Positions 2,814-26,981 of a DNA stretch of 64,000 bases are shown here, one piece after another. The notes under the pieces are model-generated. The model did not search any database, was not told where the DNA came from, and was given only the letters and a program-made list of their open reading frames with translations. Positions within the stretch are counted from its first letter, which is position 1. Every line of letters starts with the position of its first letter. The translations under genes were made by a program, and so were the position numbers. Source of the DNA: Candidatus Aenigmatarchaeota archaeon (GTDB taxonomy: Archaea > Aenigmatarchaeota > Aenigmatarchaeia > Aenigmatarchaeales > Aenigmatarchaeaceae); assembly GCA_043814985.1 (NCBI GenBank), contig JBDRJK010000001.1, positions 1 through 64,000 of the forward strand, in the 5' to 3' direction.

Positions 2814-3353
2814 ATGATTAACTTATGGTTTGAATTTGTAAAGGCTCTGCTTATTATTTTTCCTGCATACGCTACAAATGGGTTTCCTCCCTTAGCCAAT
2901 GGCAAAAAACCAATTGACATGAACAGGAAATGGAACGGCAACAGGCTATTAGGTGATGGGAAAACTTTTGAAGGCCTTGCAGTAGGAATCCTGGCAGGCT
3001 CTTTAATTGGAGCATTAGAAGCCTTTCTTTATCCAAACCTCAATGCCCATGCAATGCAGTACGGTGTAACCTTGCCATTAATCACTTTGTTCATAGGTTT
3101 CATGATATCTTTGGGTTCATTGTGCGGGGATTTAGCTGGCAGCTTCATCAAGAGAAGGCTGAAATTAAAGAGAGGTGCAGATATCCCGTTGCTGGACCAG
3201 TGGAACTTCATAATAGGCGCCACGTTGTTTGCAATGTGGTTCACTGAAATAAGCATCTGGATGCTGTTGATCATGTTACTGATAACACCATTGTTTCACA
3301 GGCTGGCAAACATTATTGCGCACAGGCTGAAAATAAAAAAGGAGCCATGGTAA
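2814..3353 (+). CDS. carS: CDP-archaeol synthase
   Basis: PAYATNGFPP, GDGKTFEG, GDLAGSFIKRRL, LLDQWNF and C-terminal KKEPW motifs. Confidence 0.92.
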   Translation: MINLWFEFVKALLIIFPAYATNGFPPLANGKKPIDMNRKWNGNRLLGDGKTFEGLAVGILAGSLIGALEAFLYPNLNAHAMQYGVTLPLITLFIGFMISLGSLCGDLAGSFIKRRLKLKRGADIPLLDQWNFIIGATLFAMWFTEISIWMLLIMLLITPLFHRLANIIAHRLKIKKEPW

Positions 3354-3354
3354 A

Positions 3355-4038
3355 ATGAGAATAGATTGCCACTGCCATACAATATACAGCAAGCACTGGT
3401 TCTGGGGCCACGACTCATTGAACAAGCCAAGGGAATTGATAAAAGTGGCAATCAAAAAAGGCCTTGGCGGCCTGGCAATAACAGACCATAACAATGTTAA
3501 AGGAAGCCTGGCAGTCAAGAAAGTTGCCAGGAGCTTCAGGGGCTTCAAAATAATAACAGGCTCGGAAATCAGGACACTAGAAGGTGAGATAATTGGTCTT
3601 GGGATAAAAAAAGATGTTCCAGAGGCATTGAGCATTGAGGAAACAATTGAAAAAATACACGACTTGGGAGGCATAGCAGTCGCGCCCCATCCTTTTGGAG
3701 GCTACATATTCAGGCAGTGCTCGAGGAATAAGGCTGTCAAAGCAGACGCGATAGAAGTTTACAACGCATCCCTCATGAAGCCTGCTAACACTAAAGCTTT
3801 GAAATTGGCCAATAGATTCAAAAAACCAAAAACAGCAGGAAGCGACGCTCACGGCCTCAGGGAAGTCGGCAACGGCGCAATAGAATGCTCGGGAGACCCC
3901 ATAGAGGCAATAATGAAGAAGCGAGTAAAGATTCTAACAAAAAAAACAACCATAAGAGACGTCTCAAGCTTGGTAACGAGAAAGTTCATAAGGTCCCTTG
4001 AATGGAGAATCCTAAGAAAAAGAGGCAAACACGTCTAG
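3355..4038 (+). CDS. PHP-family phosphoesterase
   Basis: DCHCHT, ITDHN, APHPF and GSDAH metal-binding motifs. Confidence 0.9.
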   Translation: MRIDCHCHTIYSKHWFWGHDSLNKPRELIKVAIKKGLGGLAITDHNNVKGSLAVKKVARSFRGFKIITGSEIRTLEGEIIGLGIKKDVPEALSIEETIEKIHDLGGIAVAPHPFGGYIFRQCSRNKAVKADAIEVYNASLMKPANTKALKLANRFKKPKTAGSDAHGLREVGNGAIECSGDPIEAIMKKRVKILTKKTTIRDVSSLVTRKFIRSLEWRILRKRGKHV

Positions 4039-4500
4039 CACCCAGCCGACACTGTAAAATCCTCCATAAGCAAGTATCCAGTGCAATATCAACTTTCCTA
4101 TGAGAGTCGCTAAAAAGAATTTCTTAACAGGATAACCAATGCTTCCCCCAACCAAACCAACAATGTCATCGGGAAGAGGGGTTGCCGCAAACAGTGCTAT
4201 TATCAGAAAGCCATCGTATTTCTCGAAAAGCTTTTCTGCATTTTTCATATCCTTTTTCCACCTCTTTTCTATAATTTTTTTACCTCCGAACCCTAACCCG
4301 TATCCTGTAAGCTCTCCGACAGCAGCACCCAGGCCGCCAGCCAGACCGAGAAGGAACGGGTCCATAAACAACGCAGAGAAAAAAACAACAAACGTGGAAG
4401 GTAGTGGAAGAAATATCGAGGCAGAGCCAATCATGCTGACTAAAAATACCCCGAAGTAGCCGTAAGTGCTTACCAAGACATTGAAAATCTCTAAGACCAT
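4012..4500 (-). CDS. DedA/VTT (SNARE-associated) membrane protein
   Basis: FLPLPS, GAAVGELTGYGLG and ATPLPDD motifs. Confidence 0.85.
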   Translation of the reverse strand: MVLEIFNVLVSTYGYFGVFLVSMIGSASIFLPLPSTFVVFFSALFMDPFLLGLAGGLGAAVGELTGYGLGFGGKKIIEKRWKKDMKNAEKLFEKYDGFLIIALFAATPLPDDIVGLVGGSIGYPVKKFFLATLIGKLILHWILAYGGFYSVGWVLDVFASFS

Positions 4501-4551: not shown

Positions 4552-5139
4552 ATGCTTTGGAAAAGAAGGAAACATCTTGACAGAGTAGGAAGGAAAATAG
4601 GTCTGTTATTTTCAAAGCTTCCTATGTCTCCCAATGCTTGGACATGTTTGGGCTTGGTCCTAGCCATAATCAATCTGTACTTTCTATTCAACAAAGATTT
4701 TCTAATTGCAACAGCTGTATTTGGCTTTGCCGCCTTGCTTGACATGATAGACGGCTCTGTTGCCAGAATAAAAAAGAAGGTGACAAAGCTCGGCGGCTAC
4801 CTTGACAGCGTCACAGACAGGACAGTTGAGTTCGTAATAATACTTGGCCTTTTCCTTGTAGGCTATCCGAGCTTTATTCTTCCAATGGATTTGTGGATAT
4901 TCCTCCTGTTATTCGGCTCCTTCATGTCAACCTACATGAGAGCAGTGTCATTCGAGAAGAAAATAAGGAGAAATGTCATAGGCGGCGTTCTAGAACATGC
5001 TGACAGGATGCTCGTATTTTTCCTAATTATAATAATTTCCAACTTCTCACTACAGTATGCAACATATTTGATTGCCTTGGCAGCAATACTTTCATTGGTG
5101 TCTGCCTTGCAGAGATTTCTCAAAGCAACAAAAAGATAA
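4552..5139 (+). CDS. CDP-alcohol phosphatidyltransferase
   Basis: DMIDGSVAR...GGYLDSVTD matches the DxxDGxxAR-x8-GxxxDxxxD signature. Confidence 0.92.
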   Translation: MLWKRRKHLDRVGRKIGLLFSKLPMSPNAWTCLGLVLAIINLYFLFNKDFLIATAVFGFAALLDMIDGSVARIKKKVTKLGGYLDSVTDRTVEFVIILGLFLVGYPSFILPMDLWIFLLLFGSFMSTYMRAVSFEKKIRRNVIGGVLEHADRMLVFFLIIIISNFSLQYATYLIALAAILSLVSALQRFLKATKR

Positions 5140-5703: not shown

Positions 5704-6495
5704 ATGTTCATAGAAGATTTAATAAACGAAAACTTTCTGACGCCCATGTGCAGGTACTACACGCCCATAGGCACAATAACATATGGAATAATACTGATAC
5801 TGGCAGTCCTTGGGACCTACAAGCTCCTAAAACATCTAAAGATAAAGATTGACAAGAGGTTCTTCATCGGATTGTTGCCTTTCATCATATACGGCGGATG
5901 GACTCGGGCATTGAGGGATCACATGCTAGGCATATACCAAAGCAATTTCTTCTGCTCACCACCGATTTACTTCGTGATATTCGCAATGGCTCTAAGCTCA
6001 TTACTAATCGGCATAATAGTTGGTAAGAAAGTAAAGAACTACTCCTATGAAAAAGTAATGCTGATAATAGGCATAACACTGCTGATATACAATGCCTCCC
6101 TAACATCGATAAACAACATTTCAGGCTTCTCCCTAGTCGTGATACTTGTCAGCTTCTGGTCTTTGGTGTTTTTCGGGATAAACCATTTCAAGCCAAAGCT
6201 ATTGTCCAAAGAAAACGCGGGCATAATAGTTTCCCATCTATTGGACGCCAGCTCAACGTTCGTGGCAGTTTCATTCTTCGGCTACTACGAACAGCATGTC
6301 CTGCCCAGCTTCCTGATAGATCTCTTGGGAACATGGGTAATGTTTCCCCTGAAGATATCCGTTGTATGGGCAGTTCTGTACGCAATAGACAAGTCTGACG
6401 AGGACGTGTTCTTCAAGAGGTTCCTAAAGATAATAATCCTGATACTTGGTCTGGCCTTGGGAATAAGGGACTTTCTGACAATAAGCATTTTATAA
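5704..6495 (+). CDS. DUF63-family membrane protein
   Basis: polytopic; HLLDASSTF, YYEQHVLP and LGLALGIRD motifs. Confidence 0.8.
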   Translation: MFIEDLINENFLTPMCRYYTPIGTITYGIILILAVLGTYKLLKHLKIKIDKRFFIGLLPFIIYGGWTRALRDHMLGIYQSNFFCSPPIYFVIFAMALSSLLIGIIVGKKVKNYSYEKVMLIIGITLLIYNASLTSINNISGFSLVVILVSFWSLVFFGINHFKPKLLSKENAGIIVSHLLDASSTFVAVSFFGYYEQHVLPSFLIDLLGTWVMFPLKISVVWAVLYAIDKSDEDVFFKRFLKIIILILGLALGIRDFLTISIL

Positions 6496-6526: not shown

Positions 6527-7747
6527 ATGAAATTTGTAGACATTTTTTACGTATTCGCGAATTTTATTTCAATATACTTATCCCTAGTCTGGTTCATAGT
6601 TTACTTCAATAACAAAGACAAGTTTCTGAGAAAACCCAAAATAAAAAATTTGCCAAGCGTAACATTTCTTGTTCCAGCTTTCAACGAGGAAAAAAATATA
6701 GCAAGATGCCTAAAGTCCCTTATTGACATTGATTATCCTAAGAACAAGAAAAAAATAATTGTCATTAACGACGGTTCAACGGACAGGACTTCGGAAATAG
6801 TAAAGATGTTCAAAAAATTCAAAGTGAGGCTGATAGAAAAAAAGAACGAGGGGAAGGCTGTTGCATTAAATTATGCCATGAAGTTCGTCAATACAGACTT
6901 GGTGTCCTGCATAGACGCAGACAGCTTTGTGGAAAGGGATTTCCTGAAAAAAACCACAGGCTATTTCAAAAGCATGAAGGTGGGGGCTGTTACCAGCGCC
7001 ATCAAGGTTGACAGAACAGACACATTGATGGAAAAGATACAGTGGGTAGAGTATATTATATCAATAATTTTGAGGAAACTTTTCTCTGTTTTAGGCTGCC
7101 AGTTTGTCGTATCAGGAGCTGGCGGCATTTACAGAACAGAAGTTCTGAAAAAGGTGGGACTTTTTAAAATCAGTAGCATCACGGAAGACACAGAAATAGG
7201 CCTGAGGCTGCGATCTAGAGGCTATGATATAGAGAACTGCATTGACTCCTATGTTTACACATCCTCCCCCAAGTCTTTCAAGAGCTTATTCAATCAGAGA
7301 ATGAGATGGTACAGGGGGTATATTGAAAACATCAAAGAATACCTTTTTTTAATAAATCCGAAGTACGGCGATCTTGGAGTTTTTTTCATTCCCGTATCAA
7401 TCATGTCCATAAGCCTGGTGGTCATTCTGTTCTTATTGGTAGTTGGAACTACCATTTATGATTCACTTTACTCAATCTTCTCATGGTCTCTCATAAACAA
7501 CCAGATAATCATCCCAAGCCTATCGATAGATATTTTCCAAATCAGCTTTTTAAGCCTATTAAACTTTTTAGCATTGGCAACAAGTATTACCTTGATATTC
7601 ATGGGCATAAGATTAAGCAAGGTAAAGTTCATTAAAAGGAAGTTCCTCTATATAGGATTATATTTTTTGATTTATCCTTTCCTATTACCATTTCTCTGGT
7701 TATCCGTATTTATCTTAGAATTAAGAAAGGCTGATAAAAAATGGTAA
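6527..7747 (+). CDS. processive GT2 glycosyltransferase (cellulose/PNAG synthase-like)
   Basis: DGSTD, DADS, TED and QRMRW (QxxRW) motifs with flanking TM helices. Confidence 0.9.
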   Translation: MKFVDIFYVFANFISIYLSLVWFIVYFNNKDKFLRKPKIKNLPSVTFLVPAFNEEKNIARCLKSLIDIDYPKNKKKIIVINDGSTDRTSEIVKMFKKFKVRLIEKKNEGKAVALNYAMKFVNTDLVSCIDADSFVERDFLKKTTGYFKSMKVGAVTSAIKVDRTDTLMEKIQWVEYIISIILRKLFSVLGCQFVVSGAGGIYRTEVLKKVGLFKISSITEDTEIGLRLRSRGYDIENCIDSYVYTSSPKSFKSLFNQRMRWYRGYIENIKEYLFLINPKYGDLGVFFIPVSIMSISLVVILFLLVVGTTIYDSLYSIFSWSLINNQIIIPSLSIDIFQISFLSLLNFLALATSITLIFMGIRLSKVKFIKRKFLYIGLYFLIYPFLLPFLWLSVFILELRKADKKW

Positions 7748-9096: not shown

Positions 9097-11760
9097 TTAT
9101 ACAGTGTCGTAAGATGGTGTTGAAACGCTTCCAGTGATTTCTATTGAACTCTCATCTAACTGTGCTGCTGTAGCTCCTGGGAATCCAGTCTGGACTATTC
9201 TTCCTGCTAATGTGGTTTGAGGTCCGTGTGTTCCGGCAATTACCAATGCTGTCTGGCCTGTGCCAAATGCATCAGCGATTACTTCGACTCTTCCGAATGG
9301 TGTGCCTGTTGGCCAGTCCTCACAACTATATGGGAATAAGCCTAGGTCGGCTAATTCTGCCACAAGTTCATTGATACAAGGTCCGCCCATCAAGACAAGA
9401 TCATTGTTTTCCTTCTCGGATTGTGTGATCTCGTTTGCCATTCTAACAACATCAGCTGTTATTGCTAGTACAGTCTCAGTTGTAACAGTTCCAGCGCCAG
9501 TTCCTGATGAAGGAGCTGGTGAAGATCCAACACCAACTGTTGCTAATGCTTGAGTTGATGGTAGAGATGCTGAAAATGTTCCTGGTGCTGTGGAATCGTA
9601 TGAGACATATGTTCCGAATTGGTCCACATATCTGTTTAACGTTGTTCCACTAACTGCCGAAACAGATGTTACAGTTCCTGAAAAGCTGGGAGATCCTGCG
9701 ACCTCGGCTCTGTTGTAACTTGCACCTGAGTCCACTCTAACAGCTACTAAGTTCCTTACTTGGCTTTCATCTAAACCTTCGACAATCAACACACCTGGTG
9801 TTGTCCAGGCTGCTGTAGTACCTGAGTTGTCTGTTGCCCTAACTACCAAGGTAGTACCTGCTGCAGGGACGGTTATCTCATAGATAGCTGTTCCTACAGT
9901 GAAGTTAGCACTAGCTGTGCCTCCGGTACCTGTGGTAATTGCTTGTGTACCTGTTGGCAAGTTTAGAGTGTATGCTGTAGCGTTTGTAAGTCCTGTTATT
10001 GTCACTGGTGATGTTATTGCTACCCAAGCACCTTTGTTTGTCATTAATGCTGGATATACATCAATTGTGGTTGAACCTACATCAATTCCGCCTGTACATG
10101 TTGCACCTGTTCCCCAAACGAAGTAGACAGCAGCTGTTGATGGTACACAAACCTGGTATGCTTGGCCGTCCAAGTACATTGTTGTGTTACCACCTGTTAC
10201 TGTCAAAGTAGCTCCGCTTGCTACATCTTGGAATGAAGATGTAGTTGAAGATGATATCTGCAATGACAATACCCTCAAAATGTGTCCAAATGAGTTCTGT
10301 GCATTACCAGCTAGGCTGTTTCTTCCTAGTGCAACATACTGGTTTAGACCTGCTTGTGCGCCTTCAACTAAGTGAAGTGCATAGCTTCCAGCGTCTGTTA
10401 GTGCTATGTTTCCTGCACCTGCGGCAGTTGACCTAGCAAATGATTGAGACAAGCTCTGTCCATCAGATGTAGTGAATGCTACTGCTGCTGTTGTTCCTGA
10501 TGGTGTTACAGTTACTGTCCCTCTGTTTGCTGTGTCGTCCAAAGCAGGGGTTATTCCTCCAAAGAATATCTTGAATCCCTTGGATGCTGGATCTGTTAAA
10601 CTTGTTCCAACACCTATAAACTGCTCCAATGTGGGTGTCCACATTATCTGGATGTTATCCAAGGTCAACGCGGTTGTGGATGCTGTACCTGTCATGCTGA
10701 CAGTTACATCATTCAATGTTACTCCGTTTACCCTAACACCTAGATAAGCAGTTCCGTCTGTGACGTTTGTGTCCTGAAGTTCAAGCTTATCAGCTCCTAG
10801 GAATACAACTGCACTATCTATTGCGCCAGTCTTTGTTGTCACGAAGATCGATGTTACACCCATAAGTGTTCCATCAGACAAGGTCTTTGTTCCACCAGAC
10901 AAAATTTGTACTGTTTCTGGTGCAGCAAGACCACCGCCTTCGACTGTCAAGGTAGCGGCAGTATTTAAACCTATAGTACCGACAGCTACTAATGAAACTG
11001 TGTATGTAGAACCGTCTACATCATATGTAGATGATTCATCAGTTGTAACGGTCTGGGCGTTCTTACCTGACAACAATGTCAAAGCCAAAGTGTCTGTTCC
11101 AGCTACTGCTGCTGTTATTGTCCATGTCTTTCCGAGTATGTTCAATTGACTGTTTACCATGTTTGCTACAATGCCTCCAGTGAAGGTCTGTGAGATTTGC
11201 TTTGTGAATGAAAGGAGGTATGTATAAACGATGTTATTGCCTGTAATTTTCAATCCTAGCTGTGGTGCGGTTCCACCTGATGGTGTCTCATATACAACTT
11301 GGCCGTTTGCAGCCGCGTTTGTAAATGTCAAATACTGAGAGTATGGAACAGCCACACTAGCTTGATCGATGTAATTACTGGATTCCAATACGTCTGGCAA
11401 ATCAGTTGCTGTTAAGACTTGTTTTGAACTTGCAAGGGTATCCCACGTTGTTAATGGGTTTGTTCCAGTTGCCATTGAGACTCCGCCAGTAATTCCTACT
11501 GAGACGCCTGCTACTGCAACTTGGGATGTTGTCTTTGCATTCGATGCCATGTTAACAGCTACACCTATTCCGCCAGCGATATCTGATGGTAAAGCGTTTG
11601 GACCGACAACGAACAATGGGAAGGCAACAGTATCTGTTACACTTACCATATCAGCGATGTTTCCTAATGCTGTTACTGATGTTGCTAATGCTGGGCCAAC
11701 TAATGACAAACCTGCCATTAAAGCTGAACCAGTTATAGCAGCTAATTTTTTGAATTGCAT
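9097..11760 (-). CDS. S-layer protein
   Basis: start reassigned to ATG 11760 (GGAGGT SD); signal MQFKKLAAITGSALMAG; N-terminal VVGPNALPSDIAG and C-terminal LVLMGGPCINELV...ALVIAG motifs of euryarchaeal-type S-layers; Thr/Gly/Ala/Ser-rich. Confidence 0.88.
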   Translation of the reverse strand: MQFKKLAAITGSALMAGLSLVGPALATSVTALGNIADMVSVTDTVAFPLFVVGPNALPSDIAGGIGVAVNMASNAKTTSQVAVAGVSVGITGGVSMATGTNPLTTWDTLASSKQVLTATDLPDVLESSNYIDQASVAVPYSQYLTFTNAAANGQVVYETPSGGTAPQLGLKITGNNIVYTYLLSFTKQISQTFTGGIVANMVNSQLNILGKTWTITAAVAGTDTLALTLLSGKNAQTVTTDESSTYDVDGSTYTVSLVAVGTIGLNTAATLTVEGGGLAAPETVQILSGGTKTLSDGTLMGVTSIFVTTKTGAIDSAVVFLGADKLELQDTNVTDGTAYLGVRVNGVTLNDVTVSMTGTASTTALTLDNIQIMWTPTLEQFIGVGTSLTDPASKGFKIFFGGITPALDDTANRGTVTVTPSGTTAAVAFTTSDGQSLSQSFARSTAAGAGNIALTDAGSYALHLVEGAQAGLNQYVALGRNSLAGNAQNSFGHILRVLSLQISSSTTSSFQDVASGATLTVTGGNTTMYLDGQAYQVCVPSTAAVYFVWGTGATCTGGIDVGSTTIDVYPALMTNKGAWVAITSPVTITGLTNATAYTLNLPTGTQAITTGTGGTASANFTVGTAIYEITVPAAGTTLVVRATDNSGTTAAWTTPGVLIVEGLDESQVRNLVAVRVDSGASYNRAEVAGSPSFSGTVTSVSAVSGTTLNRYVDQFGTYVSYDSTAPGTFSASLPSTQALATVGVGSSPAPSSGTGAGTVTTETVLAITADVVRMANEITQSEKENNDLVLMGGPCINELVAELADLGLFPYSCEDWPTGTPFGRVEVIADAFGTGQTALVIAGTHGPQTTLAGRIVQTGFPGATAAQLDESSIEITGSVSTPSYDTV

Positions 11761-11932
11761 ATTAAATACCTCCTTTTCTTCTTCAAGTGCTTTCGCACTT
11801 GTCTGCGCGGTGTGCGCGCCTTTTGGCGCCAAATGTGCGCTGAGCGCGCCAAAAAAATCAATTGTCACCTTTGTAATATGTTCTTGGCGCCATTATTTGC
11901 AAACATTATTGCGTAAAATTAGCATATATAAA
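11761..11932 (-). promoter_or_regulatory. S-layer promoter and structured 5' leader
   Basis: TTTATATA box at 11932-11925; GC-rich stems including CAAGTGC-GAAA-GCACTTG; SD GGAGGT. Confidence 0.65.
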
Positions 11933-18267: not shown

Positions 18268-19227
18268 CTATCTTCCTGAAACAGTAACTTCAGCTGTTCT
18301 TTCTGTCCTGTATCCGTAAGTCGCGACCACCTTTATCTGGTATGACTGCATTGTTGTTGGTGGGCTTGTGACACTTACATCGCATGAAAGTGTTATGTCT
18401 CTTCCCACAGTCATTTCCTGCTCACCCTCGCATTCATCAAAGCCTGTCAAACCTGAGCCTTCAACATCAATGTCCAGTATGTGTAATTGCGTTTCCGTGT
18501 CCATGCTCAAGTCAGGATTGCTGTAGTCAATTGACTCAGCTTTGTAGAGCGTTCCTCCACCCACATTGCTTATCTTTATTTGCAGAGTGAAGGTGTCGTC
18601 TCCTGGAGCAAGAACCACTGGATCAGGTCGTGCTGTAACGTACAAGGCTATGGGACCTGCTGTTGATGAAAGGGTTGCCTTATTCAATGGTTTGTCGGTT
18701 GCCCTTGCAGCATCAGATTCGGCCTCAGAGTAAACCCAAATGTTTCCCATAACAGTTGTCGAGTAGTCATAATACAGCCTGCCAATGAATATGTCTTCCC
18801 TTGTTGAACCCTTTGCGATTCCTGAAGGCGAGGTCAAACTATATGTGATCATCTGCTCGCCTGCTGGAACGTCTGCAACAGGATTCTCTGGATCAAGCTT
18901 CTTTGTTATCTGCTCGAAAACGCTTGTGGTAGAACCCCTACCGCTCCAGTACAGGTCATTCTGCAAGTCGTCCTTGATGCCTGAACCTGTCAAGTAGAAA
19001 ACTGCATCGCCTGCATCAACAATTGCTCCTCCCCTGTTGCTGATTGTCACCATGATCCTTCCGGATGCATCGGTGTATATCTCAGCCGGGTCTGCGGTAA
19101 ACTCTGTGATAACAAGTCCAGCGCCACTCACTACTGTTGTTGTCGTTGAAATGAATGGAAATTGTCCCTGTACACAGCCAGCCACTAAAACTACGGATAG
19201 AATTGCTAATAAAACTCCTTTTTTCAT
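18268..19227 (-). CDS. putative lipoprotein, paralog 1 of surface cluster
   Basis: LVAGC lipobox; beta-rich; clearly similar to 19324-20280. Confidence 0.8.
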   Translation of the reverse strand: MKKGVLLAILSVVLVAGCVQGQFPFISTTTTVVSGAGLVITEFTADPAEIYTDASGRIMVTISNRGGAIVDAGDAVFYLTGSGIKDDLQNDLYWSGRGSTTSVFEQITKKLDPENPVADVPAGEQMITYSLTSPSGIAKGSTREDIFIGRLYYDYSTTVMGNIWVYSEAESDAARATDKPLNKATLSSTAGPIALYVTARPDPVVLAPGDDTFTLQIKISNVGGGTLYKAESIDYSNPDLSMDTETQLHILDIDVEGSGLTGFDECEGEQEMTVGRDITLSCDVSVTSPPTTMQSYQIKVVATYGYRTERTAEVTVSGR

Positions 19228-19247
19228 TTATTCACCTTTACTATGAG

Positions 19248-19278
19248 AATTGTGAAATGGATATTTATAATTAGTGGT
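19248..19278 (-). repeat. duplicated promoter element, copy 1
   Basis: AATTGTGAAATGGATATTTATAATTAGTGGT; 29/31 identical to 20291-20321; contains a TATA-like box. Confidence 0.85.
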
Positions 19279-19323
19279 TAATTGTAGTGCTTGTGCTGTT
19301 TTGGATAAAAAGAAAAAATGAAA

Positions 19324-20280
19324 CTATCTGCCCTGAACTGTCACGCTGGTCGTTCTCTCTGTGTAGTATCCGTATTTTACTGTTATATCAAACGGGTAAG
19401 ACTGGAATGTTGAGGGAATTGTATTGACAGTAAAATCACAGACTAATGTTAATTCTCTTCCTGCCACAAGTTCTTGGTCCAATAGATTAGCTGCAGTGCA
19501 TTCAGTACCGGCTCTTGACAATCCTGTACCTTCGTTTATAATAACTGATACATTGTTTATCTGGGCCATGTTTAGTCCAACACTATTACCACTATAAACT
19601 ATAGAACCTGGGTGATAGATTGTACCTGACGCAAGATTGTTTATTTTTATGTAAAGAGTAAATCTATTATCAGTGCCGTATAATACAACCGGTGTTGGAG
19701 ATACAGACACGCTCAAACCAACTGGTCCTTTAGTATATGTGAAGGAAGGTGTGTATATCTGTCTTCCAGCCGCTCTTGCTGCTTCTGCCTCAGTTTCACC
19801 GTAAACCCAAATGTTACCATTGGCAGTAGTGTTGTAGTCGTGGTAGACTCTCCCTATAAATATGTCATTTCTCGTTTGCCCAGGTGAAAGAGGTGGTGCT
19901 GTTAATGTTAAGGAGACTCTTTTAGTAGAAGCTGGAACGCCTCTAACAACATCTTCGGCCCTCATTTCTTGGCTAATAGATTCCTGATAATCAGTCGATG
20001 CAACGTCCCCATTCCACGCATCATAATTTGAACCTGTTATATAAACCTTGGACAGGCCTGAAGGAACGGTTGTTCCACCCCTGTTCTCAATCTCCATTAT
20101 CAACCTAACAGAATTGCCACTAAAGACACTAGAAGGCTCTGCTGTAAAGCTTATTATTTCAAGTCCGTTGCCTGCTCCAACTCCTATTCCACCTGCTCCT
20201 GGTATGTCTATTCCTACACATCCTGCGACTAGAACAGTTGCTAAAACTAACATCAAAATTTTTGCTTTCATTTGTTTCAC
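19324..20280 (-). CDS. putative lipoprotein, paralog 2 of surface cluster
   Basis: LVAGC lipobox; start may be ATG 20271. Confidence 0.8.
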   Translation of the reverse strand: MKQMKAKILMLVLATVLVAGCVGIDIPGAGGIGVGAGNGLEIISFTAEPSSVFSGNSVRLIMEIENRGGTTVPSGLSKVYITGSNYDAWNGDVASTDYQESISQEMRAEDVVRGVPASTKRVSLTLTAPPLSPGQTRNDIFIGRVYHDYNTTANGNIWVYGETEAEAARAAGRQIYTPSFTYTKGPVGLSVSVSPTPVVLYGTDNRFTLYIKINNLASGTIYHPGSIVYSGNSVGLNMAQINNVSVIINEGTGLSRAGTECTAANLLDQELVAGRELTLVCDFTVNTIPSTFQSYPFDITVKYGYYTERTTSVTVQGR

Positions 20281-20290
20281 TTAGAAATAA

Positions 20291-20321
20291 AATTGTAAAA
20301 TAGATATTTATAATTAGTGGT
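20291..20321 (-). repeat. duplicated promoter element, copy 2
   Basis: AATTGTAAAATAGATATTTATAATTAGTGGT. Confidence 0.85.
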
Positions 20322-20326
20322 GAATG

Positions 20327-21214
20327 CTATTTTGCCTTGACTGTTATTGGAATAGAGTCGTAGATTTTATACTCATAAATAACAGCAACATCAATGGACT
20401 TAATATCTATGGTAGATGTTGAAGCGGTTTTAAAACTGCATCTTGTCGGAACAGCTCTTCCCTTTATGAATTTTAATTCATCAATAAGGCTTAAGGTGCT
20501 TCCCGAACTTATGTAACCGTCACAGGACAAATCCATTATATTATTTGGGTAAATCAAATAAATTTTAACGTCCTCTAAAAAGCCATTTCCGTTGTTATTG
20601 TAATTGATGTCCATAGCGTATTCAGAAAGACCTGCAATAAAGGGCTGCGATTCAGGGAATGATAAGTAGACGTTCAATGGCCCCTTAGCGTAAGATGAAC
20701 TAATAGGAATACTTTGAAGCGTTCCTTCCATTTCCCTTTGCTGGTATTCATTCAGCGATAAAACAGCTATGTCTTGGAAAACCGAGTTTTTTGCCTCGTA
20801 AGATGTCAAGAACTTTATCGAGCACTGCCTGTCTATTTCTGACGGGTCTGATGTCCATCTCCAAGACCAAACACAACTGCGATTTCCCTTTAAAGTTCCT
20901 TCATCTCCACAATCATCCTTCACAAACAGACCGCTATTAAGATTCTCTGGAAAACATGCATTGTCATAGACTTCAAAATGAACATTGTTCAAATCATATG
21001 CCTGCTTGTTTCTCAACTCTACGAATACCTGGACGCCTCGCCCTGAATTGATCTGAGAAGAACTTGTTTCAACGTTTAAGAAGATGTCCGGGCTTCCCAT
21101 GTCAGTTGTAACTATTCCTGAACTTTCCAAACCTGGTATTGTGAGGTCTGGAAGCTGTATGCATAGAGAACATAAAGAAACTAGGAATATGGACAAAAGC
21201 AACAGGTATTTCAT
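20327..21214 (-). CDS. putative secreted/lipoprotein, paralog 3 of surface cluster
   Basis: signal ending SLCSLC; shares GP(L/I/V) and terminal YxY motifs with neighbours. Confidence 0.78.
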   Translation of the reverse strand: MKYLLLLSIFLVSLCSLCIQLPDLTIPGLESSGIVTTDMGSPDIFLNVETSSSQINSGRGVQVFVELRNKQAYDLNNVHFEVYDNACFPENLNSGLFVKDDCGDEGTLKGNRSCVWSWRWTSDPSEIDRQCSIKFLTSYEAKNSVFQDIAVLSLNEYQQREMEGTLQSIPISSSYAKGPLNVYLSFPESQPFIAGLSEYAMDINYNNNGNGFLEDVKIYLIYPNNIMDLSCDGYISSGSTLSLIDELKFIKGRAVPTRCSFKTASTSTIDIKSIDVAVIYEYKIYDSIPITVKAK

Positions 21215-21243
21215 AAAAAACTATTGCACTTTAATAAATAAAT

Positions 21244-22179
21244 CTATGGGTTTACCTTGATGTTGATCTCACCCACCGCAGAGTAGTCGTACTCAATCTC
21301 CGCGCTTATTGAGTATGTCTTCTCAGGACCAGGTCGAAAACTGAGATCATCGCTTTCTGGCGTCTTGATGTTGGAACACCTTATCTCAAGGGATTTTTTG
21401 TTTATTATAGGAATGTCCTCGTTGCTTGTGCAAACATTACCAAAACAATTAAAGTAAGGGCAGGCATTGGTAGGAACAGTAAACCCTGTTGGGAATGTTA
21501 TAGTAAAAGTCCCGTTTTCAATCTTTCTCAACAAACCTGTTCCCTTGTCTTCTACTCTTACATAAACTGGCAGTGGGGAGCCGTTCTTTACAGGAAGGTT
21601 GGCCCCAAATTCAAAGTAAATCTTTATGGGGCCTCTGCCAACATTAACAGTCGGCCTTGAAGTGACTGTCTCTCCTGCTCTCTGAAGTTCCAGAAGATAA
21701 TCCTTGTCAATGACAACAAAATCAACCTGTGACTCTGCTGTGTAGTCATAAAAATCAAACTTAAACCTTATGGGGCAGGTCACGCTTATGTAGGCAATCT
21801 CTTCACCTGTTGGGGCTTCAAAATTCCATTCAATCAGTCTTGATTCCTTTGGTGAGAATGTATCTACAAAAGAGCCTGTTGTGTCTGTAGGTGAAACTTC
21901 AGGGTCTCCGTCTATTGGCCTACACAATCCAGTATCATAAAGATTATAATCAAGGGGGATTTCCTCAAACTCGTCCTGATTCAAAACCTCGAAATAAACA
22001 GAAAACTGATCCCCTACACGGACAGACGTTGAAGGTAGAACAGTTATGTTGTGTACTGATATCACGTCAGGAGGCAGTTCCTTGACCTCAACATCCCCTC
22101 CAGAAAAAAAGTCGAAACCGGGCACTACGCATCCTGATATAAGCAAAACTGTTATCAATCCTAAAAATATTATTTTCAT
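21244..22179 (-). CDS. putative lipoprotein, paralog 4 of surface cluster
   Basis: LISGC lipobox; shared motifs. Confidence 0.8.
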   Translation of the reverse strand: MKIIFLGLITVLLISGCVVPGFDFFSGGDVEVKELPPDVISVHNITVLPSTSVRVGDQFSVYFEVLNQDEFEEIPLDYNLYDTGLCRPIDGDPEVSPTDTTGSFVDTFSPKESRLIEWNFEAPTGEEIAYISVTCPIRFKFDFYDYTAESQVDFVVIDKDYLLELQRAGETVTSRPTVNVGRGPIKIYFEFGANLPVKNGSPLPVYVRVEDKGTGLLRKIENGTFTITFPTGFTVPTNACPYFNCFGNVCTSNEDIPIINKKSLEIRCSNIKTPESDDLSFRPGPEKTYSISAEIEYDYSAVGEINIKVNP

Positions 22180-22217
22180 TCTATCACATTCTATATTTTA
22201 TTTTCTAATTTAAACGT

Positions 22218-25109
22218 TTATCCCGGAGGGGCGTTCGCTACTGACAGGCTTTGGGTTGTCGTTGTTTTAATATATCTGTAATCCGCTGTGCCTATTATAA
22301 GACTTGTTCTCCTATCAACATCTTCATCAATAGTTGATTCTATAAAAAATGATACTCTTTTGAATTCCTTGGGTTCTATTTCCCTGTTGTGAGTGCAGTG
22401 TATTAAGTTTCCAACAAATGAACAGCTGTCAAACGTGAAAGACAAATCATCTACTGAGTCAGGCAGACCTCCCAAAAATTCAGGTATGTAAATGTCAAAT
22501 GATGTGACAGATTCTATAATACCTCTACCCTCGTTGTAAATAGAAGCCACTATCAGAGAAGACTCCTCATCTCTCAGAGGCTGTCTCTGGCCCCACAATG
22601 TTGCCTTGACAGGACCTCCTGTGTATTGTGATGTCAGCTCCTGCAATGTTATCTGCCTATTTTCGAGCAGAGTTATGTAAAGATTATCATTTATGACTTC
22701 AATTGGTATTGAGACATTGACCCTGTAGTCATAGCTGTAATTTGCATTTATCTTGACTACCTGACCTGAATGTGTATACACTTCTCCGTCATCCGTAATT
22801 TCTGTTTCTCCCAGAATTATAGTAGTACCATCCTCCGCAGTTCCGGACCATGAATCCTGTTGCATTATGAATGTGGACATCTTTATCTCGTCGGGATAAG
22901 TTATTCCTGACCACTGGCATGTACTTATATGACCGGAAGGCGTCTGGTCATCCATTCCACTGCAGGTCAATTTCTTAAATGTTCCCATTTCTACTGACTC
23001 CTCTTTCACAGGATCCTCCCAAGTCGACCATATGTCCAATTTTATATTATTCGCATTGAACTCACCATCATTAGAAAGCTCTATCGAACCTATTGTCGGC
23101 TCGCTCGGCTCAAGTATGCCTGGGAATGATGGGAATATGTCAAATTTGGACAGCTCCATTGACCTTATTGTGCCTCCAGACTTGACAGCGCTCTTGGTCG
23201 CCTGGCCCTTTTGAGTCTGCAGCAGATAGTACTGCTGCGGGTTTGTCATCATCAACCAAGCATCTCCCATGCTGCTCTGAGCCTGATAAAACATCTCACT
23301 GAGGGGTTCGAAAATCATTGCTGTAAAGTTCTGGACCTGTGGCCAGAAGTAGCCGAACACTGCCTGTCCTATTGTTCCAGTGTACATGCTCGAGAATGTG
23401 ACCATTGCAATCAGTATCATCAGAATACCTATTGCAGGCTTTCCTCCAGAACCAGCTGATATTCCTGTGATAAATGAGACCACCCATATCAGGATAAACA
23501 TGACCATGGTTATGTCGTCCACTGTGAATGCTGTCAAAACACCGGAGAACAGCAGAGAGGCAAACATAAAGATAGGAAACAATACATATCTGTCCACCTT
23601 CTCAAAGCCGCCTCCAACACTATCCAGCCTCTTTGATGTTATCTCTATTACCCACTTGCCCTCTTCCTTTTCTTTCTTGTATACAGGAAGCGTGACAAAG
23701 AAGGCCAAGGCCATGAAGAAGAGTGAAATGCCAACCGGGCTTGACCCAAAGGTCATGAAGAACAATATTGCTATGTATACTCCCAAAGCCATTCTGAAGA
23801 ACGACTCTATTGCCTCGAAGGGCTTGCTGTTCTTGAACTCGATTGGCAGCATGAAGTAAAAGAAGAAAGCAATTACCAGAGTAAGCATTAGGTTAATCAT
23901 GAAAAATTGGTAGATTACAAGACCGAAGAACAGTAACTTGAAAATAGCCTTTGGAACCAGTAGCCATCCCTTACTGCCAAGAGCCTCGTTAGGACCCAGA
24001 GACTTGAGGATTTCGCTTTCCCCTGGAAGCAAAATGTAAACAGGCATAATGGCCATCAGGGCTATTGCCAGATACATGAATGATATTGGGAATCCCAAGA
24101 ATTGCGGTACTATCAACACTGCTATGCCAGCTATTACAAACATCAATACGCTGTAAAGCTCTGTTTCAACCTTTTCCCTAGAACTTTTGCTAAGTTTTAC
24201 TTTATCTCTTTCTGCTTCTTGAACATATCGTGGGTCTTGATAAATGTTAGGTTCACCACAAGGACAATATTTTAATTTATAATCATAAGATTCACCACAT
24301 GCAGGACAAATAACATCACTTCGTCCACTCTTGCCTATTTTTCCTGTGGTCCTAGATTCTATACCACCACTAATTCTTCCAGTACCTGATTTTATCTTTC
24401 CACCAAATCTTCCAGAACCTGATTTTATCTTTCCACCAATTCTACTGGCCCTACCAGGAGGCTTTTCAAAAAGCTTGTTCAGCGTTGGTATGTATTCTTC
24501 CGCTGGTTTCTTTGATTCTATGCTTCTTTGTTTTCTTAATTCAATTTCCTTAAAGGTCTGCTCCCTGTCTATTAATGGATTAGTAATACCACATTGAGGA
24601 CATCTCTTAGAATCTTTATGATAAGTATGTTGACACCAAGGACATCTCATTCCAGTTTTTTCACTACGCTGTTTTTTTGCTGTTGCTGTTTTAAAGAAAT
24701 CTCCCAAACGAACATTCCCTCTTATACCCGCTTCTGCTTCTCTTGATTTTTTTCTCTCTTCCTCTAGGATTTTTTCCTCTTTTTTATACCTTTTTCTTAA
24801 ATTAATTCCACGTTTTCTTCTGTCTTTAGACAAATTTTTCTGTCTTAAAAACTCATCCATCATCTCATCGGCTAATTTTTCCTCTAATGCATATTTTTTA
24901 CAAATAGGGCACCTTCCCTCATGGAGGGCATAAAAATTTACTTGCCTTCCACAACTAGCACATGTTATAAATTTAGAACCAATAAAAGTTCCTCCCTGGC
25001 CTTCATAATATGGAATTCCCTCAGGGCTTATTTTCCTAACACCATGAGGCATCTTTTCTACTGTTTTTTCCATTCCCAATAATCTTCTAATCCTATCAAG
25101 TATACTCAT
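22218..25109 (-). CDS. large polytopic membrane protein with N-terminal Zn ribbons and C-terminal cluster domain
   Basis: 963 aa; three Cys-pair Zn ribbons, multi-TM core, acidic ectodomain sharing motifs with the four lipoproteins. Confidence 0.8.
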   Translation of the reverse strand: MSILDRIRRLLGMEKTVEKMPHGVRKISPEGIPYYEGQGGTFIGSKFITCASCGRQVNFYALHEGRCPICKKYALEEKLADEMMDEFLRQKNLSKDRRKRGINLRKRYKKEEKILEEERKKSREAEAGIRGNVRLGDFFKTATAKKQRSEKTGMRCPWCQHTYHKDSKRCPQCGITNPLIDREQTFKEIELRKQRSIESKKPAEEYIPTLNKLFEKPPGRASRIGGKIKSGSGRFGGKIKSGTGRISGGIESRTTGKIGKSGRSDVICPACGESYDYKLKYCPCGEPNIYQDPRYVQEAERDKVKLSKSSREKVETELYSVLMFVIAGIAVLIVPQFLGFPISFMYLAIALMAIMPVYILLPGESEILKSLGPNEALGSKGWLLVPKAIFKLLFFGLVIYQFFMINLMLTLVIAFFFYFMLPIEFKNSKPFEAIESFFRMALGVYIAILFFMTFGSSPVGISLFFMALAFFVTLPVYKKEKEEGKWVIEITSKRLDSVGGGFEKVDRYVLFPIFMFASLLFSGVLTAFTVDDITMVMFILIWVVSFITGISAGSGGKPAIGILMILIAMVTFSSMYTGTIGQAVFGYFWPQVQNFTAMIFEPLSEMFYQAQSSMGDAWLMMTNPQQYYLLQTQKGQATKSAVKSGGTIRSMELSKFDIFPSFPGILEPSEPTIGSIELSNDGEFNANNIKLDIWSTWEDPVKEESVEMGTFKKLTCSGMDDQTPSGHISTCQWSGITYPDEIKMSTFIMQQDSWSGTAEDGTTIILGETEITDDGEVYTHSGQVVKINANYSYDYRVNVSIPIEVINDNLYITLLENRQITLQELTSQYTGGPVKATLWGQRQPLRDEESSLIVASIYNEGRGIIESVTSFDIYIPEFLGGLPDSVDDLSFTFDSCSFVGNLIHCTHNREIEPKEFKRVSFFIESTIDEDVDRRTSLIIGTADYRYIKTTTTQSLSVANAPPG
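24375..24440. repeat. 33-bp tandem repeat (2 copies) encoding (I/F)GGKIKSG(S/T)GR
   Basis: TCTTCCAG(T/A)ACCTGATTTTATCTTTCCACCAA(A/T) twice, two mismatches. Confidence 0.85.
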
Positions 25110-25159
25110 AAAAACAACTCTTTATCTAATCTAAGAATTATGAAAATTGCTATATTAAA

Positions 25160-25936
25160 TTAACCGTAGAACAAGACAATCCTAGAAGAAGTGATGTTGT
25201 AGTTTGTGTTTGGCCCTGCTGACAAGTCAATTGTATTTGTTCCCTCCTGAAGCCTGTCAGTGGCAAAGTCTATGAAAACAGGTATTATACCAGTGTATAT
25301 CTCAACGCCATTGACCCTGACCTCAAGGTTCTCGTTTCCTGTTCTCCTACCGAACACCAAGAGCCTTGCCCTGTTCAGGCTGTTTATTTCGCTTGGTGTC
25401 ATATCAAACTCAATTGTCTGGCTCTTCCTGCTCTCATAGCTAACAGAAACATCAGCGTCAAATATGTAGATGGTTGGCGCCCATATCTTCCAGCCAGAAG
25501 TCTCTGCTATAATGTTTATGCTGTTGCTGCTTTTGAGAATGGAGCTGTCAAAGCTTATTCCCTTGTCGCCTATGCTGGGTGCGCCCCTGTAGATTTCTTC
25601 ACCATTAATGTAAACCATCAGGTTGCCATAGTAATTGGATTTCTGGGTATTCAGGTTAATGGTTCCCTCTGTAATATCACCTATGTTCTCAATGTCAAAC
25701 TCGCTCCTCTGTTCTGAATAAGAAAACAAGCCGTTGCTGATCTCGCCACCAAACTCCGAAACAGTATTCTCGCCAACAGAGTAGGATATGGAGAAGTCCT
25801 CACCAAGCTCAATGCTCCGGCTAGACTGTGATATGTTCCTGCCAGTTGCAGAAAAGTCAAAACCCCCAGAGAAAACCAGCATCATAACTATTAATCCTAA
25901 TATGGCTGCTATGAGCACTGGAATGAAGTCAGGCAT
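25160..25936 (-). CDS. membrane-anchored beta-rich secreted protein
   Basis: start reassigned to ATG 25936 (MPDFIPVLIAAILG), avoiding overlap with pelota; internally repeated VYINGEEIY / VRVNGVEIY. Confidence 0.75.
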   Translation of the reverse strand: MPDFIPVLIAAILGLIVMMLVFSGGFDFSATGRNISQSSRSIELGEDFSISYSVGENTVSEFGGEISNGLFSYSEQRSEFDIENIGDITEGTINLNTQKSNYYGNLMVYINGEEIYRGAPSIGDKGISFDSSILKSSNSINIIAETSGWKIWAPTIYIFDADVSVSYESRKSQTIEFDMTPSEINSLNRARLLVFGRRTGNENLEVRVNGVEIYTGIIPVFIDFATDRLQEGTNTIDLSAGPNTNYNITSSRIVLFYG

Positions 25937-25973
25937 AATTGTATTTAATATATTAAGAATAAAAATATTCCTT

Positions 25974-26981
25974 ATGCGCTCATCATTTGATTTGAAGCAC
26001 AACATAGTGAAAATAACGCCTCAGACCAAGAGCGACCTCTTCATACTGAAGGAGGTCATAACGCCTGAGAGCTATGTCACTGCGAAGTCTCCCAGAAGCG
26101 TCAAGATAAAGAGAGGCGACCAGATGGTAAGGGCTAAGACTGGCAGGAAGGAAGTTGTAATGAAACTGCAGGTCGAGAAGATTGAGCTAAAGGAGAAATT
26201 AAGATTAACAGGAAAAATTACTGAGGCCCCTGACAGCGTTGACAAGGGCTATCACACCATAGAGATCGAACCAGACAAGTTTTTGAAAATAGAGAAGGAG
26301 TGGAAGTCCTGGGAACTGGACAGGATAAGGTCTGCCCAGATAAAGTCAGAACCTGTTCTAGTTTGTATCCTTGATGACGAGGAGGCTGACTTCTATTTCC
26401 TCAAGGAAAGGTACAAGCACCTGCTTCACATACAGGCTAACGTGCCTGGCAAGGGATTCGATACAAAAAAGGCTGACCTGAAGAAAAAGGAGTACTACAA
26501 GAAGGTACTGGAGAAGTTCAAGAAGGAGGAAAAGAGAGTTAAAAAGATAATTATCGCAGGACCTGGTTTCACCAAGGATAATATACAGACGCTCATCAAG
26601 GAAAGGGAGAAGGACCTGCTAGAAAAATTAATGGTCAATTCTGCATACCAGACAGGTAACCTCGGTTTGCAGGAATTATTGAATAAAGGCCTGCTTGAAA
26701 AGCTGGGAAAAATGAGCAGGATAGAAGAAGAGACAAAGGCTGTTGAGAGGCTGCTGGAGCAAATGGGAAAAGAGGGCAAGGCTGTCATCGGAGACAATGT
26801 TAAAGAAGGCATCAAATCCGGCTTGGAAATTCTGCTTGTATCTGACAATAAGATAAGAGATTTCGAGGAACTGCTGGATCTGGCAGACGAGTTAAAAATA
26901 AAAATAATGGTTATTTCCTCAGAGCACCCTGCAGGGGAAAGGCTTCTGGGAATTGGCGGGATAGCCGGCCTAAGATACTAA
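25974..26981 (+). CDS. pelA: pelota ribosome rescue factor
   Basis: start reassigned to ATG 25974; LRLTGKI, YHTIEI, IIIAGPGFTK and SSEHPAGERLLGIGGIAGLRY motifs. Confidence 0.92.
   Translation: MRSSFDLKHNIVKITPQTKSDLFILKEVITPESYVTAKSPRSVKIKRGDQMVRAKTGRKEVVMKLQVEKIELKEKLRLTGKITEAPDSVDKGYHTIEIEPDKFLKIEKEWKSWELDRIRSAQIKSEPVLVCILDDEEADFYFLKERYKHLLHIQANVPGKGFDTKKADLKKKEYYKKVLEKFKKEEKRVKKIIIAGPGFTKDNIQTLIKEREKDLLEKLMVNSAYQTGNLGLQELLNKGLLEKLGKMSRIEEETKAVERLLEQMGKEGKAVIGDNVKEGIKSGLEILLVSDNKIRDFEELLDLADELKIKIMVISSEHPAGERLLGIGGIAGLRY

Follow-up and report, generated by a model that had tools for sequence, protein, structure and literature searches.

A conserved six-gene envelope cluster of Aenigmatarchaeota combines paralogous two-sandwich modules on putative lipoproteins with a polytopic membrane protein bearing zinc-ribbon motifs

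We analysed a window of 64,000 nucleotides (nt), comprising positions 1 to 64,000 of contig JBDRJK010000001.1 (assembly GCA_043814985.1) from a Candidatus Aenigmatarchaeota archaeon, and describe here a cluster of six consecutive minus-strand genes in it, designated F, E, D, C, B and A in the direction of reading (Table 1). Four of them (A to D) encode proteins with lipoprotein-type signals, E a large protein with zinc-ribbon motifs in its N-terminus and a polytopic membrane core, and F a single-pass membrane protein. The intergenic gaps A-B, B-C, C-D, D-E and E-F are 96, 46, 29, 38 and 50 nt, respectively, and since they are short (29-96 nt) and all genes lie on one strand, the six look like one operon transcribed F-E-D-C-B-A. 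Its edges are a divergent Pelota gene on one side and a convergent PHP-type gene on the other, and the A/T-rich stretch with TATA-like elements upstream of F may be the operon promoter. The start of F is set at a conserved MPDFIPVL at position 25936, and that of B is likely the ATG three codons in, the ESM Atlas copy beginning at residue 4. The genome (0.81 Mb in 21 contigs, 91% complete) has the module described below at this single locus, and the public sequencing runs that contain the window stretch are groundwater and biofilm metagenomes, with no RNA run listed among them.

Table 1. Features of the cluster, of its surroundings in the window and of comparable loci in related genomes (aa, amino acids; locus handles precede positions outside the window).
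Feature	Position	Strand	Description
A	18268-19227	minus	319 aa; predicted lipoprotein, lipobox LVAGC; duplicate of B (40% identity)
B	19324-20280	minus	318 aa; predicted lipoprotein, lipobox LVAGC
C	20327-21214	minus	295 aa; module paralogue; degenerate lipobox VSLC15
D	21244-22179	minus	311 aa; predicted lipoprotein, module paralogue; lipobox LISGC17
E	22218-25109	minus	963 aa; ribbons, membrane core and module
E residues 1-315	24165-25109	minus	basic cytoplasmic part with three zinc-ribbon motifs and a G/K/S-rich low-complexity stretch
E residues 316-640	23190-24164	minus	polytopic core (~9 helices), then a conserved juxtamembrane helical segment
E residues 641-963 and stop	22218-23189	minus	extracellular copy of the two-sandwich module
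F	25160-25936	minus	258 aa; single-pass membrane protein; first operon gene
Putative operon promoter	25937-25975	minus	A/T-rich, TATA-like elements directly upstream of the F start
DUF63/AliA-family membrane protein	5704-6492	plus	PF01889, E-value 6.7e-59; candidate lipidation enzyme for A to D
PF05124 S-layer 'outer domain' protein	9100-11868	minus	923 aa, E-value 1.4e-12; probably the S-layer protein
Extra genes between F and E in relatives	L016 11492-12733; L019 6247-8685; L022 11134-15692; L028 9778-11748; L030 8104-9036; L045 6446-8947; L046 10927-12300
DUF63-adjacent loci	L033-L042; L051-L052; L093-L100

Comparison of single sequences with BLAST and phmmer joined only A and B (40% identity, E-value 1e-69), and we therefore gathered orthologues at 20 loci in related genomes, made one alignment and profile per family and ran the profiles against each other with hhalign. 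The probability was 100% for A-B, 99.8% for C-D, 99.2% for B-D, 98.9% for B-C and 98.8% for both A-C and A-D, with matches among these four families spanning almost their full length. The C-terminal part of E (residues 655-963) was matched by C at 97.6% (E-value 4e-12), and D-E, A-E and B-E gave 97.8% (E-value 1e-12), 92.1% and just 53%, respectively. F, at below 4% against every other family of the cluster, is no relative of the module. When 78 module sequences were aligned together, four motifs (y.y, gPv, n.G.G and a terminal Y.Y) fell in common columns and are the best-conserved positions of the module families. A to D and the C-terminus of E carry one homologous module of ~280 residues, and the proposal of the initial annotation that five proteins share a single domain is thus borne out by the profile links (92-100%, with B-E at the lower value above) and by the shared motif columns. 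Among 1.84 billion proteins, a joint D and C profile found 1950 cluster representatives at E-values up to 1e-3 and 364 at up to 1e-30. Some relatives have a double-length D of 556-611 residues that matches the D profile (L027 6873-8540, L024 11103-12935), and in L027 a second D gene of normal length (332 residues) stands beside it.

The AlphaFold2 model of B, computed with 23 relatives (predicted local distance difference test score, pLDDT, 87.9; predicted TM-score, pTM, 0.81), has a signal helix followed by a disordered tether (residues 19-32) and two beta-sandwiches, which share two very long connecting strands (136-161 and 293-316) with both YxY motifs on them; a helix (162-170) precedes the GP motif. 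Residues 643-957 of E fold like the B module (whole-E pLDDT 71.4). The immunoglobulin (Ig)-like beta-sandwich of the module superposes on a solved CARDB domain, and neighbours in the ESM Atlas agree with a CARDB-like reading. In Pfam searches, A and B matched CARDB (PF07705) below its cutoff of 22.7 bits (16.7 and 15.3 bits, respectively; the best match among 23 A and B members had an E-value of 1.3e-4), C, D and E had no match to it, and no protein of the genome reached PF07705 at an E-value of 1e-5 or lower. In an hhalign comparison with a profile that combined 17 CARDB domains taken from relatives, domain 1 scored 92% for A, 90% for C, 78% for B, 68% for D and 7% for E, domain 2 of all five proteins stayed below 8%, and F, taken as control, gave 0.4%. 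We read domain 1 as an Ig sandwich with a remote likeness to CARDB and interlaced with a second sandwich of no detectable family, so that the description of the shared domain as unnamed stands for its second half and not for its first. The idea that the two domains are duplicates of each other was unsupported (hhalign, at most 21%).

Beyond this relation, the cluster proteins resembled nothing named in the databases searched. Foldseek with the B and E models returned generic tandem-Ig matches only (TM-score at most 0.25), with MSCRAMM adhesins and pilins among the structural neighbours; a PDB sequence search, run with module, E and F profiles, produced nothing but noise and a match to Wza in the lipobox region; and no Pfam, NCBIfam or PDB family spans E, F or the whole module. 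Homologues of the cluster proteins go by database names such as 'hypothetical', 'Zn-finger' or 'lipid attachment site-containing' only. That no named family or system could be recognised from the sequence at the outset accordingly held against Pfam, NCBIfam, PDB and Foldseek.

We counted lipoboxes of the form [L/V/I][A/S/T/V/I][G/A/S]C within the first 70 residues of each family member. A canonical lipobox is present in 10/10 members of the A family, in 14/15 of the B family and in 18/20 of the D family, where the exceptions read SSAC and VCGC, and in 9/18 of the C family, the other nine, VSLC of the window included, being degenerate. Of the window's own proteins, A and B (both LVAGC) and D (LISGC) have the canonical form, and the lipobox cysteine is invariant throughout the alignments, in the C family too, so that the four lipobox-type signals first noticed in A to D are reproduced by the family counts with the qualification that C is degenerate. 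The ectodomains are acidic and contain an even number of cysteines, which are signs of an extracytoplasmic location. An enrichment of N-glycosylation sequons in them was looked for and not found (10 observed against ~17 expected).

In the initial description of E, the module follows a multi-helix membrane core and a basic N-terminal region that bears zinc ribbons, and hydropathy, the AlphaFold2 model and the CxxC pairs all agree with that layout. The CxxC pairs lie at residues 50/67, 156/170 and 268/282 (the last one CPC) in a region of marked positive charge (71 K+R against 42 D+E), poorly conserved sequence and low pLDDT; its match to the zinc ribbon DZR (PF12773) scored 22.7 bits against a cutoff of 27.3, and precomputed zinc-ribbon Pfam matches exist in 15/62 E homologues. 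About nine hydrophobic helices follow between residues 321 and 580, and helices are modelled across residues 293-638 with pLDDT mostly 68-92 and a loop (482-499) below 50. Conserved positions across 37 E homologues are almost all G, P, F, Y or W, plus K557 (or R) and E652, and contain no conserved catalytic or transport motif and no sign of ion or substrate binding; the membrane core had no sequence match in Pfam, NCBIfam or PDB, and homology of the core to DUF63 was ruled out (hhalign 0.1%). Variable extra genes occur between F and E in some relatives (Table 1), several of which encode zinc-ribbon proteins without a family match, and this suggests that the cytoplasmic ribbon part of E can be separately encoded. 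F, the sixth, membrane-anchored and beta-rich gene noted at the outset directly upstream, has an N-terminal anchor in which M1, F4, P6 and L8 are invariant in 17 aligned sequences and two beta-rich repeats outside the membrane, and 7/17 members of its family show sub-threshold matches to the carbohydrate-binding module (CBM)-like PF14683 (best E-value 6e-4).

Homologues of E were found in 34/41 relatives and in 162/301 genomes sampled from the phylum Aenigmatarchaeota. They are common in the families f14 (21/23), f15 (11/11), f21 (31/35) and f17 (24/34), and rare or missing in f16 (0/58), f19 (0/17) and f12 (1/19). Within the taxonomic order of the window we examined 20 loci, and in all of them D follows E; E-D-C-B/A is complete in 17/20, the remaining three being cut by contig ends, and F lies upstream on the same strand in 18/20, the other two again cut by contig ends, sometimes with one to five genes inserted between F and E. 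A-type genes occur in 9/20 of the related loci, all in this order and 8/9 in the window's own family. D-, C- and B-type lipoproteins also follow E in 9/20 loci of other orders, and the anticipated clustering in relatives thus extends to distant families. Pelota and the PHP-type gene border the cluster throughout the window's order. F is broader in distribution than E (91/101 sampled genomes of the phylum, including 20/20 in f16 and 9/10 in f12), and 7/8 E-less loci have the form Pelota gene, F, DUF63 gene, one to three module lipoproteins and PHP-type gene, with F and the lipoproteins on one strand and the other three genes on the opposite one. Separately, in family f14 an E homologue and a DUF63 gene (L033 2703-7570) have beside them, on the opposite strand, a locus that resembles one for type IV pili: Pfam identifies a T2SSE ATPase and two T2SSF half-proteins, and a pair of small pilin-like genes is also present. 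Gene sizes and order in L034-L037 are as in this layout.

The probable surface (S)-layer protein is encoded elsewhere in the window by a gene with an S_layer_C domain (PF05124). The cluster proteins have no match to this domain, which is present in 280/301 genomes of the phylum, including families that lack E. A coupling of the cluster to the PF05124 S-layer was accordingly ruled out, and the separate gene and near-universal spread indicate that the cluster is neither the S-layer nor tied to the presence of this domain.

The E-less loci also brought a link to lipoprotein biogenesis. The gene at E's place in them encodes a seven-helix protein of 258 residues that belongs to DUF63 (PF01889, E-values 1e-46 to 1e-59). 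Of 28 loci examined outside the window's order, 22 contain a DUF63 gene inside the examined stretch and 18 have it at most 100 nt from E, F or a module gene (among the loci named in Table 1). In many cases it converges on E or F and is in head-to-head orientation to D. It is absent from the examined stretches of all 20 loci of the window's own order, and in the window itself lies 11.8 kb from the cluster. Haloferax HVO_2859 is annotated as 'DUF63 family protein' in a table of PMC9426492 and, according to the available text of PMC12462473, is AliA, a component of archaeal lipoprotein lipidation; we therefore read the DUF63 neighbour as a member of the AliA family. Lipoproteins are prevalent in DPANN archaea, where AliA is present with gaps, as stated in the accessible part of the same work (Hong et al. 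2025, PMC12462473). We found no paper that joins DUF63/AliA to the cluster, and the supplementary neighbourhood tables of PMC12462473, which lie outside its available text, could bear on it. On this basis A to D would be lipidated by AliA. Genes of lipid synthesis stand near the window's DUF63 gene, namely those for CDP-archaeol synthase (CarS, 2814-3350), a VTT-domain protein (4015-4500) and a CDP-alcohol phosphatidyltransferase (4552-5136), and a GT2 glycosyltransferase gene (6527-7744) comes after it.

The genes of the operon differ in their apparent history. Inside the window's family, proteins of the housekeeping flanks share 62-75% identity with their counterparts in the window, compared to 32-62% for the faster-evolving E, D and C. 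A, B and F are closest to genomes of the same genus (58-67% identity), and C, D and E to genus g11, with C and D 48-62% identical to the latter compared to 32-41% to the same genus. In maximum-likelihood trees the window groups with its own genus for Pelota (support 100/99), F (100/100) and B (93/95), and with g11 for C and D (100/100); FastTree likewise grouped the two parts of E with relatives from g11 (support 97 and 88). For C (p 4.9e-9) and D (p 1.1e-5), approximately unbiased (AU) tests rejected a clade with the same genus, and for B (p 3.9e-4) and F (p 9.4e-3) one with g11, in groupings that follow genus labels and were tested after the trees had been seen, with long branches present. 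The borders of the mosaic separate 20327-25109 (E-D-C) from 18268-20280 on one side and 25160-26981 (F and the Pelota flank) on the other. The simplest reading of these data suggests that E-D-C was exchanged as a block between genera, and the joint discordance would fit three co-adapted, surface-exposed partners moving together.

Given paralogues that are ancient and kept in fixed order, and the joint exchange of E, D and C, we favour with moderate confidence a membrane-anchored, membrane-proximal hetero-oligomeric surface complex, encoded by a vertically inherited envelope operon of Aenigmatarchaeota (DPANN). E would form the integral base, with its basic zinc-ribbon tail in the cytoplasm, some nine membrane helices and one rigid module outside. 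D, C and B, joined by A in the window's lineage, would be secreted, lipidated at the lipobox cysteine by AliA (DUF63) and held by short tethers on the outer face of the membrane, where the modules of A to D would most likely pack side by side with that of E into one fixed hetero-oligomer between membrane and S-layer. F would be co-transcribed and, with its two CBM-like sandwiches, probably provide a glycan-binding or S-layer-facing arm. We infer not only the physical assembly and its stoichiometry but also the lipidation, the site under the S-layer, any ligand and the binding of glycans by F. Several observations weigh against such a complex. The B-E link is far below those of the other pairs, and half of the C family has a degenerate lipobox. 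E-less lineages keep F, aliA and one to three module lipoproteins, and E is therefore no obligatory anchor. The housekeeping flanks are as syntenic as the cluster itself, which makes gene order, the adjacency of aliA included, weak evidence of shared function. The post hoc choice of groupings and the long branches bear on the AU tests in the same sense.

A doubtful alternative is an apparatus for host contact or adhesion, in which the Ig-like modules and F would bind the host surface and E-D-C would be a swapped specificity cassette. The DPANN lifestyle and the 0.81 Mb genome speak for it, as do the fast evolution and block exchange of E, D and C relative to the flanks, the MSCRAMM adhesins and pilins among the structural neighbours and the weak CBM-like matches of F. 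Those fold matches are generic, however, with a TM-score of at most 0.25, and the short lipid tethers would keep A to D near their own membrane, beneath the S-layer that the genome encodes. In contrast to the large, variable, strain-specific proteins known as adhesin candidates of DPANN archaea, the cluster is also single-copy and fixed in position and gene order across the phylum.

We consider it unlikely that there is no assembly at all, with A to D acting as independent surface lipoproteins, either binding proteins or envelope spacers, clustered through inherited synteny only. The equally syntenic, unrelated housekeeping flanks and the lipoproteins retained in E-less lineages are what this would predict; against it stand the orthologous D, C and B classes that recur in the same order across distant families, the operon-like intergenic gaps and the discordant phylogeny common to E, D and C. 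Extending the favoured complex into a host docking and transfer machine confined, on present evidence, to Aenigmatarchaeota would give the ribbon tail of E a role in binding nucleic acid or protein, place on its nine-helix base a ring or stalk of four to five paralogous, AliA-lipidated modules together with F as a glycan-binding arm and have E-D-C swapped to track hosts or to escape viruses, a scenario that we regard as quite unlikely.

Very unlikely in our estimate is a conduit for uptake or transfer, in which the core of E would be a channel and the modules an extracellular tunnel or funnel for lipids or host-derived molecules, in the manner of Mce systems. An operon that pairs a polytopic core with a series of anchored, paralogous ectodomains would suit such a role, as would the dependence of DPANN archaea on hosts and the basic cytoplasmic tail with its zinc ribbons. 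The operon nevertheless has no ATPase or other energising component and no match to an MCE or transporter family, the Ig-like fold is untypical of carriers, and charged or polar residues (K557/R, E652) are exceptional among the conserved positions of the core. A fibre or pilus polymerised from the E base by strand exchange or covalent links, as in archaeal fibres of the TasA/CanA type or Gram-positive pilins, is highly improbable. Every subunit has a lipobox-type anchor, which argues against release; the cluster protein sequences show neither a sortase signal nor a class III signal peptide nor a PGF-CTERM, their N-termini being lipoboxes or plain anchors; and Pfam matches to a PilB/FlaI-type ATPase or a PilC/FlaJ platform are missing from the operon and from the genes next to it.

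Much of the diversity of archaea belongs to DPANN lineages, and their envelope building and host contact are almost uncharted. Our literature search found no description of the cluster. Castelle et al. 2021 (PMC8204110) report a module specific to Aenigmarchaeota whose families are unannotated and in many cases membrane or extracellular ones, and the available part of that paper does not describe the cluster; term searches of the text of Sakai et al. 2022 (PMC8784108), as far as it is available, gave no conserved DPANN cluster. The present analysis contributes counts across the phylum, the form of the locus that lacks E and the interwoven structure of the module, as well as the adjacency to AliA and the exchange of E-D-C, two points of which we know no earlier report. 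A phylum-wide, single-copy, six-protein envelope operon without a characterised relative, adjacent to the only known archaeal lipoprotein-lipidation enzyme, is a candidate for a core DPANN surface complex, and its lipoproteins are candidate natural substrates of AliA outside haloarchaea. Exchange of E-D-C as one block points to selection at the cell surface. If the assembly proves true, paralogous lipoproteins with Ig-like folds would make up an envelope machine of a type new to archaea. As a system, the cluster matches no known kind, although its parts (Ig-like sandwich, lipoboxes and zinc ribbons) are familiar.

Among known systems, mycobacterial Mce operons encode YrbE permeases and six paralogous Mce proteins that form one hetero-oligomer. 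Like them, the cluster combines a membrane core with ancient paralogous anchored ectodomains, some of them lipoproteins, in fixed order; unlike them, it has no MCE domain and no ATPase and its modules have an Ig-like fold, without any relation in sequence or fold. In domain 1, the likeness is to the sandwiches of CARDB or 'COG1361 S-layer domain' Ig-like surface proteins, for which the CARDB domain of PF1109 has been solved (3idu), but the two domains of the cluster are interwoven by long shared strands, and its proteins are putative lipoproteins in a fixed operon with a polytopic partner. A, B and D share a canonical lipobox with lipoproteins of the AliA/AliB pathway, and the genome has an AliA-family gene; AliA itself, in contrast, has been characterised in Haloferax with unrelated substrates, and the gene neighbourhoods given in the accessible part of PMC12462473 do not mention the cluster. 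The Gram-positive Csc/WxL clusters differ in domains and anchoring and are bacterial, and yet they come close in kind, being reportedly (PMC1534035) conserved clusters of multiple surface proteins of unknown function that are thought to form one extracellular complex.

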